Of a DNA stretch of 64,000 nucleotides, positions 32,274-34,877 are shown one piece after another. Positions within the stretch are counted from its first letter, which is position 1. Every line of letters begins with the position of its first letter. Under the pieces are notes generated by a model. It ran no database searches, was not told the DNA's origin, and saw only the letters and a program-made list of their open reading frames with translations. Made by a program: the position numbers and the translations under genes. Source of the stretch: Escherichia coli (GTDB taxonomy: Bacteria; Pseudomonadota; Gammaproteobacteria; Enterobacterales; Enterobacteriaceae); the NCBI RefSeq assembly GCF_030013205.1, contig NZ_CP122648.1. One strand, given 5' to 3'.

Positions 32274-32328
32274 GGTGATGCTGCCAACTTACTGATTTAG
32301 TGTATGATGGTGTTTTTGAGGTGCTCCA

Positions 32329-32604
32329 GTGGCTTCTGTTTCTATCAGCTGTCCCTCCTGTTCAGCTACTGACGGGGTGGTGCGTAACGGCAAAAGCACC
32401 GCCGGACATCAGCGCTATCTCTGCTCTCACTGCCGTAAAACATGGCAACTACAGTTCACTTACGCCGCCTCTCAGCCCGGTACGCACCAGAAAATCATTG
32501 ATATGGCCATGAATGGCGTCGGATGTCGCGCCAGTGCACGCATTATTGGCGTTGGCCTCAACACGATTTTCCGCCACTTAAAAAACTCAGGCCGCAGTCG
32601 GTAA
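32329..32604 (+). CDS. insA: IS1 InsA
   Basis: 91 aa zinc-finger/HTH protein [39 protein letters not shown]…. Confidence 0.95.
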
Positions 32605-33026
32605 CCTCGCGCATACAACCGGGCAGTGATGTGATTGTCTGCGCTGAAATGGACGAACAGTGGGGCTACGTCGGTGCTAAATCACGTCAGCGCTGGCTGT
32701 TTTACGCGTATGACAGGATGCGGAGGACGGTTGTGGCGCACGTCTTCGGTGAACGCACTCTGGCCACACTGGAGCGTCTTCTGAGCCTGCTGTCGGCCTT
32801 TGAGGTCGTGGTATGGATGACGGATGGCTGGCCGCTGTATGAATCACGCCTGAAGGGAAAGCTGCACGTTATCAGCAAGCGTTATACTCAGCGCATTGAG
32901 CGGCATAACCTGAATCTGAGACAACATCTGGCAAGGCTGGGACGGAAGTCACTGTCGTTCTCAAAATCGGTGGAGCTGCATGACAAGGTCATCGGGCATT
33001 ATCTGAACATAAAACACTATCAGTAA
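32523..33026 (+). CDS. insB: IS1 InsB (expressed as InsAB' transposase by -1 frameshift)
   Basis: 167 aa ORF in -1 frame overlapping insA 3' end. Confidence 0.9.
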
Positions 33027-33036
33027 GTTGGAGTCA

Positions 33037-33648
33037 TTACCCAATTTTTGAACTGTCTTTAAGATGAATATTACGGATAAGAAAACGAATGTAGTTATCG
33101 TTTTTAGATTCCCAGTGCGTATATTTACCAACTATGCTATTATTTTCTGACTGCCAGTGATCGAATGCTGTCTGTCCACTTATATTTTTATGATTAATGT
33201 CGCAACCAGCCTCAATTAGTGCATCGTACACATATCCTTCAAATGGAATGAAAAGAAAGGAATTGCCATAGCTATCTTTGGTATGGATATCTAGTCCTGC
33301 TTTGATAAGATATTTTACTAACCCTGGTGAAACATCAATATGTTGAATCGCAAGGGTGCCTGACTTATTCCGGTGGTTAACATTAATACCATTGCTGACA
33401 AGAAGTTCCACTGTTTCAACATTTTGAGCATAGAATAATGCATTATTACCGTCATTATCCAAGTGGTGAATGTCAATGTCAGCGTCAATCATTGCCTGTA
33501 TAGCTTCAGGTACATTACAGGTAAAAAGAGCAGTTTGACCTTTACTATTGCACATATTTATATCCATGCCAGCCTTAAGGCAACGAAGGACACCATTTTT
33601 AGACTTTACACGGAATAGGTTATTTTTATTATTTTCTCTTGATATCAT
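33037..33648 (-). CDS. Ankyrin-repeat protein (C-terminus runs into IS1 terminal repeat)
   Basis: 203 aa with about 4 ANK repeats (…DGNNALFYAQNVETVELLVSNGINVNHRNKSGTLA…); stop codon lies inside the IS1 right inverted repeat; AT-rich 460-bp upstream region. Confidence 0.7.
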   Translation of the reverse strand: MISRENNKNNLFRVKSKNGVLRCLKAGMDINMCNSKGQTALFTCNVPEAIQAMIDADIDIHHLDNDGNNALFYAQNVETVELLVSNGINVNHRNKSGTLAIQHIDVSPGLVKYLIKAGLDIHTKDSYGNSFLFIPFEGYVYDALIEAGCDINHKNISGQTAFDHWQSENNSIVGKYTHWESKNDNYIRFLIRNIHLKDSSKIG

Positions 33649-34167
33649 TGTTTATCTCCTTTTTTGTTGTTTTCAAGATATTAATGACACCAGATTTTAC
33701 GGTATTCAAATTTATTTTTGTTTTATTAGGGGGTATCTGATTTGGTTTGCTTAAGGTTATTCTTAACTTAATGGAACATAGGGACGTTAAGGTTATCCTA
33801 TGTGATGTGGATTAACCATTTTCACAAGAATATTTATCCATATTGGAACTAATCTGTATAAAGGAGATAATTAGAGGCTCAGATATTAATACTATAGAGA
33901 GTAATGCTATAGGATATGGAAAAGATCATGTAATATAATGGTGGTTATTAATGTTCATCTTAATTTTGGAAATTAAATGAGTAGTGTTTTTTATGAGGTT
34001 TTTTGCTGTTGATAATTCTTATTAAAATTTGAAGAGCATCCTTTAAGTTATTCGGCTTGAGGATGCTCATTTAAAATTTAAGCAGCGTAGTCTTTTTCAA
34101 CAGCCAGGAAGGGGTGATGCTGCCAACTTACTGATTTAGTGTATGATGGTGTTTTTGAGGTGCTCCA

Positions 34168-34569
34168 GTGGCTTCTGTTTATATCAGCTGTCCCTCCTGT
34201 TCAGCTACTGACGGGGTGGTGCGTAACGGTAAAAGTACTGCCGGACATCAGCGCTATCTCTGCTCTCACTGCCGTAAAACATGGCAACTGCAGTTCACTT
34301 ACACCGCTTCTCAACCCGGTACGCACCAGAAAATCATTGATATGGCCATGAATGGCGTTGGCCTCAACACGATTTTACGTCACTTAAAAAACTCAGGCCG
34401 CAGTCGGCAACCTCGCGCATACAGCCGGGCAGTGACATCATCGTCTGCGCGGAAATGGACGAACAGTGGGGCTACGTCGGGGCTAAATCGCGGCAGCGCT
34501 GGCTGTTTTACGCGTATGACAGGCTCTGGAAGACGGTTGTTGCGCACGTATTCGGTGAACGCACTATAG
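34168..34569 (+). CDS. insA: IS1 InsA variant (internal deletion, stop read-through)
   Basis: 133 aa ORF; first 80 aa align with InsA apart from the 11-aa deletion. Confidence 0.7.
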
Positions 34570-34832
34570 CGACGCTGGAGCGTCTTATGAGCCTGCTGTC
34601 ACCCTTTGACGTGGTGATATGGATGACGGATGGCTGGCCGCTGTATGAATCCCGCCTGAAGGGAAAGCTGCATGTAATCAGCAAGCGATATACGCAGCGA
34701 ATTGAGCGGCATAACCTGAATCTGAGGCAGCATCTGGCACGGCTGGGACGGAAGTCGCTGTCGTTCTCAAAATCGGTGGAGCTGCATGACAAAGTAATCG
34801 GGCATTATCTGAACATAAAACACTATCAATAA
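34455..34832 (+). CDS. insB: IS1 InsB (variant copy)
   Basis: 125 aa from first Met; near-identical to InsB of copy 1. Confidence 0.8.
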
Positions 34833-34877
34833 GTTGGGACCATTACCAAATAGTTTATATGCTAAAAATTTAGGGAA

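Follow-up and report, generated by a model that had tools for sequence, protein, structure and literature searches.

The two IS1 copies in the window (the whole 64,000-nucleotide stretch analysed here) are, with a probability of roughly 0.8, ordinary IS1 elements standing at deletion junctions in a genomic island integrated at ssrA, copy 1 being an element with adjacent deletions and copy 2 a drifting relic. The anatomy of the elements, the DNA missing beside them and the distribution of their junctions among genomes are observed directly. The chromosome is that of a pig-associated E. coli, the island hosts both copies, and no IS1 ends beyond those of copies 1 and 2 occur in the window. The features concerned are as follows.

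30580..32273, minus strand: alpha-amylase-family (ygaQ-position) pseudogene, 5'-truncated at the IRL of IS1 copy 1
32274..33041, plus strand: IS1 copy 1, intact, 768 bp
33037..33648, minus strand: ankyrin-repeat gene, 3'-truncated by IS1 copy 1, 203 aa vs. 328 aa at full length
34078..34112, minus strand: kwaB remnant (about 11 last codons and the stop, 35 nt), abutting the IRL of copy 2 and translating as ...LLKKTTLL
34113..34847, plus strand: IS1 copy 2, a 735-bp element of the IS1A group (768 minus 33)
34878..38116, minus strand: hsdR, type I restriction subunit, convergent with IS1 copy 2 and ending (3') 30 bp from the IRR of that element; a possible frameshift at a T6/T7 run around 37300

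Copy 1 is bounded by IRL GGTGATGCTGCCAACTTACTGAT and IRR ATCAGTAAGTTGGAGTCATTACC. Its insA spans 32329-32604 (91 aa), the A6C frameshift site lies at 32578-32588 with TTAAAAAACTC at 32578, and the fusion frame of InsAB' is open over 32329-33026 (232 aa). The Pfam domains Zn_ribbon_InsA, HTH_Tnp_IS1 and DDE_Tnp_IS1 are all full. The element turned out to be a mosaic iso-form, IS1A-like at its 5' end and IS1F-like at its 3' end: the 5' 250 nt show 5 differences from IS1A and 20 from IS1F, the 3' part (438 nt) shows 7 from IS1F and 37 from IS1A, and the whole element carries 31 substitutions relative to IS1F and 51 relative to IS1A. Recombination may itself have produced this mosaic. Copy 1 is flanked by the 9-bp sequences GATGTTCTG and CAATTTTTG, which differ, and a target duplication of 8 or 9 bp is absent around it. 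On its left, the amylase-like pseudogene consists of an ORF at 30580-31983 and an upstream frame; RefSeq labels it 'incomplete, missing N-terminus' in an identical record. The gene is about 558 bp longer in strain VE-V10-F, relative to which copy 1 stands in place of 2,280 bp that there include an IS2. On its right, the stop codon of the truncated ankyrin-repeat gene falls within the IRR, whereas the full-length 987-nt gene is present in strains ETEC6333, 23AR1217, and JX21CE33.

The left (IRL) junction of copy 1, located in the amylase-like gene, is fixed in 15 genomes, all of them porcine E. coli, among which there are four different right-hand endpoints. The right junction of the window type occurs in a nested subset of 6 of these genomes. 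The right endpoint of ETEC6333 and P15-25 lies 1,255 bp earlier than that of the window, and the 1,255 bp adjoining the element there are missing from the window. Homology to the right of the element restarts at window position 33774 in K_EC180 and at 44816 in EC556. At all four endpoints (e.g., in ETEC6333, P15-25, K_EC180, and EC556) the 768 bp of copy 1 are identical base for base. One junction of the element, the left, is thus constant and the other variable, as one would expect where IS1 causes adjacent deletions. Confined to one lineage of porcine E. coli, copy 1 is an intact mosaic IS1 of recent date. The junction at its IRL would have been kept while the IRR side gave rise to a series of one-ended (adjacent) deletions of varying extent; in the window version a further 1,255 bp would have been lost, with the 3' end of the ankyrin gene cut off. 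By these four nested deletions the ankyrin genes are progressively lost in the porcine lineage, which includes ETEC and O139:H1 isolates, and in some porcine strains the type I restriction system is gone altogether, along with most of the ssrA island.

Copy 2 has the same IRL as copy 1 and the IRR ATCAATAAGTTGGGACCATTACC, in which three positions are changed relative to IS1A. Its 9-bp flanks, CCAGGAAGG and AAATAGTTT, do not match either, and no 8-bp or 9-bp target duplication surrounds it; the original prediction that neither copy has matching 9-bp flanks is therefore confirmed and can be extended to duplications of 8 bp. Pairwise alignment reveals a single 33-bp in-frame gap, in a region that is complete in all K-12 iso-forms. 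The missing segment lay between 8-bp direct repeats, and the deletion junction is formed by one retained repeat, GGCGTTGG, at 34354-34361; slippage or recombination between the two repeats may have caused the loss. It amounts to 11 residues within the helix-turn-helix (HTH) DNA-binding domain common to InsA and InsAB'. With this loss the bit score for Pfam HTH_Tnp_IS1 drops from 88.8 to 53.6, 33 residues being stretched across 44 positions of the profile. The zinc ribbon and DDE domains are full length. At 34408-34410 the insA stop codon TAA is changed to CAA, and the resulting read-through ORF (34168-34569) encodes 133 aa. The in-frame deletion, the stop change and the 133-aa ORF were all described correctly at the outset. 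The 42-residue extension of the read-through InsA is out-of-frame insB sequence in which no Pfam domain was found. The A6C site is at 34384-34394, with TTAAAAAACTC at 34384, and the InsAB' frame is open over 34168-34832 (221 aa). RefSeq marks both copies as 'programmed frameshift', and their proteins are unmistakably those of IS1. It has been reported that the zinc finger and the HTH of IS1 are both needed to bind the inverted repeats (PMC12428005). Judging by the position of the deletion within the domain, copy 2 would be unable to bind its own ends, and its RefSeq label 'IS1 family transposase' probably stands for no working transposase.

The DNA replaced by copy 2 can be seen in strain JX21CE33, which has no IS at the site and shows the gene order ankyrin - kwaB - kwaA - hsdR. 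PADLOC confirmed KwaB (8e-165) and KwaA (4e-95) in this strain, kwaB being located at 7166-8137 of the JX21CE33 locus L008. Window positions 33400-34113 align with L008 6488-7201 at 98.7% identity. To the left of copy 2 the window matches JX21CE33 up to L008 7201, and to the right it matches from 8763, a position between the kwaA start and the hsdR stop; 1,561 bp of JX21CE33, comprising kwaA and nearly all of kwaB, are replaced by the element. Strain 2017.20.01CC likewise lacks an IS1 in the interval from the ankyrin gene to hsdR, which is occupied by unrelated filler, so that this strain confirms the right boundary only. The pair of intact kwaA and kwaB that defines the Kiwa system is found in relatives only; in the window Kiwa is reduced to the 35-nt kwaB remnant and is thus non-functional. 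An old IS1A-group copy, or a partner copy, may have inserted in the kwaA-kwaB pair that lay between the ankyrin gene and hsdR. A deletion associated with IS1 would then have taken the 1,561 bp, i.e., the whole of kwaA and all of kwaB except about 11 codons, leaving a single IS with non-matching flanks. The Kiwa defence module was destroyed by the IS1 event, the scar of which about 5% of complete E. coli genomes carry; with the island it also reached Citrobacter and Kluyvera. Beside each of the two copies, DNA of IS-free relatives is missing. The proposal that the missing duplications point to IS1-associated deletion is supported by the kwaB-kwaA segment of JX21CE33 in the case of copy 2 and by the 15 porcine genomes with four right endpoints in the case of copy 1.

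The distribution of copy 2 was determined with junction probes of 46-50 nt, each half of which is below the megablast word size, and which separate deleted from full-length IS1. A 111-nt query over the 33-bp deletion was dropped because two half-matches were joined, making deleted and full-length IS1 inseparable. The deletion junction is present in 282 of 5,426 complete E. coli genomes, at one place in each; the left junction of copy 2 was detected in 283 E. coli genomes and the right junction in 288. Only one state is seen at its junctions, vs. the four right endpoints of copy 1, and a joined-flank query for the empty site gave no contiguous match among genomes having both flanks. The relatives that proved informative were recognised by a KwaB annotation under hits to the left flank. 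Citrobacter sp. R56 has the same island with an identical element (735/735), and Kluyvera cryocrescens has it with an element that shows 2 differences and retains TAA. TAA is also kept in strain 23AR1217, whose copy has an internal stop, and in about 50 other E. coli copies; CAA occupies the insA stop in only about 232 chromosomal copies of the element. The persistence of TAA in Kluyvera, 23AR1217 and these E. coli copies suggests that CAA is a late, unselected change. CAA occurs as well in an IS1 pseudogene on IncA/C plasmids. This iso-form is unrelated to copy 2, and CAA thus arose independently there. The plasmid element was considered as a full-length parent of copy 2 and rejected, its 5' end being IS1F-like. 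A Klebsiella IncL/M plasmid carries a 735-bp IS1 with the same 33-bp deletion, flanked by the 8-bp duplication CCCTTTTT; it is the only one of 72,556 plasmids to have such a deleted IS1. Either deleted elements remain mobile in trans or the 33-bp deletion recurs.

After the 33-bp loss, copy 2 appears to have been drifting as an immobile passenger of the island: substitutions accumulated in the IRR, TAA became CAA in the majority of E. coli copies, and some copies acquired internal stops. It is best read as a drifting, immobile relic, because the deletion is located in the HTH, the element occurs at one site only, and CAA is late and polymorphic. For the same reasons, the original prediction that copy 2 alters the InsA to InsAB' ratio which controls IS1 transposition finds no support. 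It is true that the IRL, the A6C slippery site and the InsAB' frame of copy 2 are intact, that its DDE domain is full length, that the 133-aa read-through ORF is real and that the Klebsiella plasmid element with the same deletion is flanked by an 8-bp duplication. However, a functional regulatory variant acting through a shifted InsA:InsAB' balance is very improbable for an element that lacks part of the domain with which the ends are bound, is confined to one site across 282 E. coli genomes and carries internal stops in some of its copies. Neither a CAA that is missing from Kluyvera, 23AR1217 and some 50 more copies and that appeared independently in an unrelated plasmid pseudogene, nor an extension made of out-of-frame insB, speaks for such a role. 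There is similarly little chance that copy 2 is more than a relic in another way, the HTH-deleted read-through InsA acting, e.g., as a dominant-negative on full-length IS1, or the element being mobilised in trans. These options were entertained because the promoter-bearing IRL, the slippery site, the open InsAB' frame and the zinc ribbon are kept, and the duplication-flanked Klebsiella plasmid copy suggests mobilisation in trans.

With regard to the way in which the deletions arose, a missing target duplication is usually the result of an adjacent deletion or of recombination between IS copies, and adjacent deletions frequently lengthen in steps (PMC11708052). We infer that the deletions at both copies were transposase-mediated rather than due to recombination of one IS1 with another. 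The end-state left by a transposase-mediated adjacent deletion and by recombination of direct IS1 repeats is alike, especially in the case of copy 2. The rival reading assumes RecA-dependent recombination between two direct IS1 copies, each once flanked by its own duplication, that yields one hybrid IS1 with unmatched flanks. The identical end product, its recognition as a cause of missing duplications (PMC11708052), the mosaic structure of copy 1 with its IS1A-like 5' and IS1F-like 3' parts and the abundance of IS1 (a median of 10 matching places per genome) give this reading some weight, but it seems rather unlikely. For copy 1 it would require that a second IS1 inserted independently four times within 12 kb, always in the same orientation, and recombined each time, although the element is the same to the base at all four endpoints and the presumed second copy is seen in no genome sharing the left junction. 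For copy 2, the two-copy intermediate is absent among about 318 genomes with the flanks. At both sites the history presumably began with a simple insertion; no genome was found in which the IS1 at one or the other site retains a target duplication.

Two further explanations have hardly any probability left. The two direct-orientation IS1 copies bracket a 1,071-bp segment with one gene and could be taken for an IS1-ankyrin-IS1 composite transposon inserted as a unit. Comparison with other genomes refutes this: GATGTTCTG and AAATAGTTT at the outer ends are unmatched, the copies differ by 52 substitutions, and the inner segment is in situ, since the ankyrin gene, copy 2 and hsdR are found in an unchanged order at the same location in hundreds of genomes without copy 1. 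It might also be supposed that the target duplications decayed by point mutation, the AT-rich flanks of copy 1 agreeing by eye at 5 of 9 positions, or that the arrangement is an assembly artefact. Relatives, however, show kilobases missing beside each copy, and flanks that are 98.4-100% identical to those of relatives leave too little time for decay. An assembly collapse, named at the outset as an alternative, is contradicted by the two-copy layout being 100% identical in six independent complete genomes and by the presence of copy 2 alone in about 282. Both decay and collapse are refuted by the missing DNA, the flank identity and the six genomes.

Ordinary IS1 elements at deletion junctions remain the preferred reading. 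Members of the IS1 family are about 768 bp long, with imperfect inverted repeats of ~23 bp starting GGTGATG / GGTAATG. Both copies have this length (768 bp, and 735 bp or 768 minus 33) and such 23-bp terminal repeats, together with insA, an insB' in the -1 frame reached through an A6C slippery site, and the trio of Pfam domains. A simple insertion of IS1 has a duplication of 8 or 9 bp, in contrast to both copies here. The duplications are lacking because neighbouring DNA is missing, and the difference reflects insertion history, not family membership. Neither copy equals any of the K-12 iso-forms IS1A/B/C/D and IS1F. Copy 2 is nearest to IS1A, with 18 substitutions in 735 nt (20 relative to IS1B/C, 21 to IS1D, and 73 to IS1F), and the 3' part of copy 1 is nearest to IS1F. 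On the question of whether copy 2 is a known natural iso-form the answer is divided: it matches none from K-12, yet it is an exact, widespread natural allele of this locus. Like MITE-like internally deleted IS elements, copy 2 keeps both ends around an internal deletion, here in the DNA-binding domain, and the Klebsiella plasmid copy with the same deletion has its 8-bp duplication. Unlike them, it has lost 33 bp only and shows no sign of amplification, with one chromosomal site in the E. coli genomes and the single plasmid occurrence.

Textbooks already cover adjacent deletions by IS1, defective IS copies and the absence of duplications. The locus is a tidy natural example of already-known biology with little import for mechanism, and its local details serve annotation and strain history. 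The classical description of IS1 adjacent deletions, in the gal region, is said to be that of Reif and Saedler in 1975. As in IS-mediated adjacent deletions in general (see also PMC11708052), copy 1 has one end fixed, no duplication and stepwise nested endpoints, its series being read from natural isolates rather than watched in an experiment. As for the Kiwa system (KwaA/KwaB; PMC11785009), the complete pair is present in relatives at the exact island position at which the window has about 35 nt of kwaB.

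Across the window, a piece of E. coli chromosome which three overlapping stretches of the porcine strain ETEC1748 span, the two strains differ by 8 substitutions and 3 single-base indels. The window carries two IS1 elements, both inside an island integrated at ssrA, and no further IS1 ends were found in its 64 kb. The relevant features are:

32274-33041, IS1 copy 1, 768 bp, same orientation as copy 2
34078-34112, kwaB remnant (last ~11 codons), all that survives of kwaB
34113-34847, IS1 copy 2, 735 bp, same orientation as copy 1
47523-47885, tmRNA gene (ssrA)

Copy 1 is bordered by the 9-bp sequences GATGTTCTG / CAATTTTTG and copy 2 by CCAGGAAGG / AAATAGTTT, and an 8- or 9-bp duplication is absent from both. 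Aligned with each other, the copies show 52 substitutions and a single gap of 33 bp. Copy 1 is an intact IS1: it encodes a 91-aa InsA and, by way of the A6C site, a 232-aa InsAB', with zinc-ribbon, HTH and DDE domains all full length in Pfam. In copy 2 the usual insA stop reads CAA, so the ORF at 34168-34569 reaches 133 aa. The original prediction had described the missing duplications, the 33-bp loss, the CAA and the 133-aa ORF correctly in every element. It had also called for an alignment to reference iso-forms, and both copies were compared with the annotated K-12 elements. Copy 2 shows 18 substitutions vs. IS1A, 20 vs. IS1B/C, 21 vs. IS1D and 73 vs. IS1F, and belongs to the IS1A/B/D group. 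Copy 1 is a mosaic, IS1A-like in its 5' part (5 differences vs. IS1A and 20 vs. IS1F in the first 250 nt) and IS1F-like in its 3' part (7 vs. IS1F and 37 vs. IS1A in the last 438 nt).

The probes described from here on were screened in 5,426 complete E. coli genomes. A probe of 46 nt spanning the 33-bp deletion matches 282 of them, once per genome each time, and the left and right IS/flank junctions match 283 and 288, respectively; therefore, all deleted copies lie at one site. Outside E. coli, this element recurs within the same island in Citrobacter sp. R56 (735/735 identical) and in Kluyvera cryocrescens (2 differences). Strain JX21CE33 has the gene order ankyrin gene, kwaB, kwaA, hsdR, its KwaB and KwaA matching the PADLOC models over their full length (8e-165 and 4e-95). 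These two genes make up Kiwa, a characterised membrane-associated anti-phage system (PMC11785009). The alignment of the window to the JX21CE33 stretch stops at position 7201 left of copy 2 and restarts at 8763 on the right, hence copy 2 occupies the place of 1,561 bp. The comparison with related strains thus shows copy 2 substituting for kwaA and kwaB, with Kiwa lost from the window at this site, and copy 2 has no duplication because 1,561 bp of neighbouring DNA were replaced. It seems to be a fixed relic which replaced Kiwa.

The ankyrin-hsdR segment (window 33734-34112; 8943-9290 and 6822-7201 of the 2017.20.01CC and JX21CE33 stretches) is a swap site, which in relatives is occupied by Kiwa (JX21CE33), by ~340 bp of unrelated filler (2017.20.01CC) or by the IS1 scar; the match with 2017.20.01CC stops at ...GTTTTATTAG. 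In E. coli WL164 (5560-6000 of its stretch), the IS1 beside hsdR at the same position is reduced to its right part, with the three IRR substitutions of copy 2, an otherwise IS1A/IS1B-like sequence and other genes to the left, which points to another rearrangement or recombination event at the copy 2 scar. The hsdR gene itself (34878-38116, minus strand) has 6 T at 37294-37300 vs. 7 T in ETEC1748, and is broken into two overlapping ORFs (807 and 294 aa) vs. one 1,079-aa gene. The type I restriction enzyme may truly be inactivated by this frameshift, or the homopolymer may have been misread in sequencing.

In IS1A, the segment missing from copy 2 is flanked by two copies of GGCGTTGG, a single one of which is retained in copy 2 at 34354-34361, as is characteristic of slippage or of recombination at short homologies. 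The 11 residues lost (GCRATARIMGV, IS1A numbering) lie in the middle of the Pfam domain HTH_Tnp_IS1, common to InsA and InsAB', whose score drops from 88.8 to 53.6 bits, with 33 residues stretched over 44 profile positions. Zinc finger and HTH are both needed for specific inverted-repeat binding (PMC12428005), and we infer that neither copy 2 product would be able to bind IS1 ends.

An identical 33-bp deletion occurs in one of 72,556 plasmids, the Klebsiella pneumoniae IncL/M plasmid NZ_CP068299.1. Its 735-bp IS1 (2781-3515 of the plasmid stretch) adjoins ISEcp1-blaCTX-M-14, is bounded by the 8-bp duplication CCCTTTTT and has nine background substitutions in common with copy 2; its IRR is normal and its insA stop intact. 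The deletion may have arisen more than once at the 8-bp repeats; alternatively, such elements may be movable in trans. Since it is common to this copy with normal IRR and TAA, the 33-bp deletion would be the earliest step in the history of copy 2. Four 5' and three IRR substitutions, common to Kluyvera and E. coli, would have followed, and TAA>CAA would have come last, within E. coli and Citrobacter. The TAA is kept in the Kluyvera and E. coli 23AR1217 copies, the latter with an annotated internal stop, and a CAA-specific 47-nt probe finds 232 chromosomal places vs. 282 deleted copies. All 7 plasmid matches of this probe belong to an IS1 pseudogene of IncA/C plasmids that is full length and unrelated, and in which the change is therefore independent. 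The extra 42 residues are read from insB out of frame and contain no Pfam domain. The proposed effect on the InsA to InsAB' ratio is left unsupported by the polymorphic CAA, the internal stop and the domain-less extension; the substitution is probably late and unselected, which agrees with a dead element drifting neutrally rather than with a regulatory variant.

At copy 1, the junction between IRL and the alpha-amylase-family pseudogene to its left was found in 15 genomes, all from pigs, only 6 of which have the window-type IRR/ankyrin junction. The 768-bp element has the same sequence in every genome examined, while its right neighbour varies. In ETEC6333 and O139:H1 P15-25 it adjoins the 5' end of an upstream ankyrin gene, and 1,255 bp missing from the window (a hypothetical gene plus the 3' end of the second ankyrin gene) are retained. 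In K_EC180 homology restarts at window 33774, so the entire ankyrin gene is lost; in EC556 it restarts at 44816, with copy 2, hsdRSM and the ParB-like genes also lost. ETEC6333 has, immediately left of IS1, an extra IS2 whose 5-bp duplication (CTCAA) is clean, which illustrates a simple insertion at this locus. VE-V10-F, of a different lineage without copy 1, has the full amylase pseudogene and IS2. The IS1-truncated ankyrin gene of the window (33037-33648, minus strand, 203 aa) has its stop codon within the IRR and is annotated by RefSeq as intact protein WP_242378982.1; full-length relatives have 328 aa, and the truncated protein weakly matches the PADLOC candidate defence protein PDC-M72A (2e-11).

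Integrase, recombinase and ParB-like genes lie beside the tmRNA gene. In other genomes the island modules come with a relaxase and a tyrosine integrase and can be located beside mutS, hence the island itself is mobile. NZ_AP027865.1 (1026459-1043000) has the same island as window 32274-47885, with relaxase, ankyrin genes and hsdRSM, beside mutS with a tyrosine integrase rather than at ssrA as in the window's lineage. Given two sites and near-identical copies in Citrobacter sp. R56 (99.98%) and Kluyvera cryocrescens (98.3%), the island is mobilisable and moves between genera. The ETEC1748 record annotates one of two tandem ParB-like island genes as frameshifted (~43400-44300 in the window) and dgcN with an internal stop (~59870-61090), both placed from the coordinates of its stretch. 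A near-identical reference record has an IS200C-type tnpA between luxS and emrB (~2283-2741).

The view that the missing duplications reflect deletion is supported and extended by the missing DNA that relatives reveal at both copies. Recombination between IS1 copies would, on sequence alone, leave the same outcome as transposase-mediated deletion and cannot be separated from it; in none of the genomes compared does an IS1 with a flanking duplication occupy either site. Such recombination is unparsimonious for copy 1, as it would have to place an identical element at four endpoints, but it is a possible alternative for copy 2. IS1 itself reportedly promotes adjacent deletions (Reif and Saedler, 1975). 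Both elements are ordinary IS1 showing well-known behaviour, and copy 1, with one end fixed and a nested set of differing endpoints beyond the other, presents the classical pattern of IS-promoted adjacent deletions, which leave no duplications and grow stepwise (PMC11708052).
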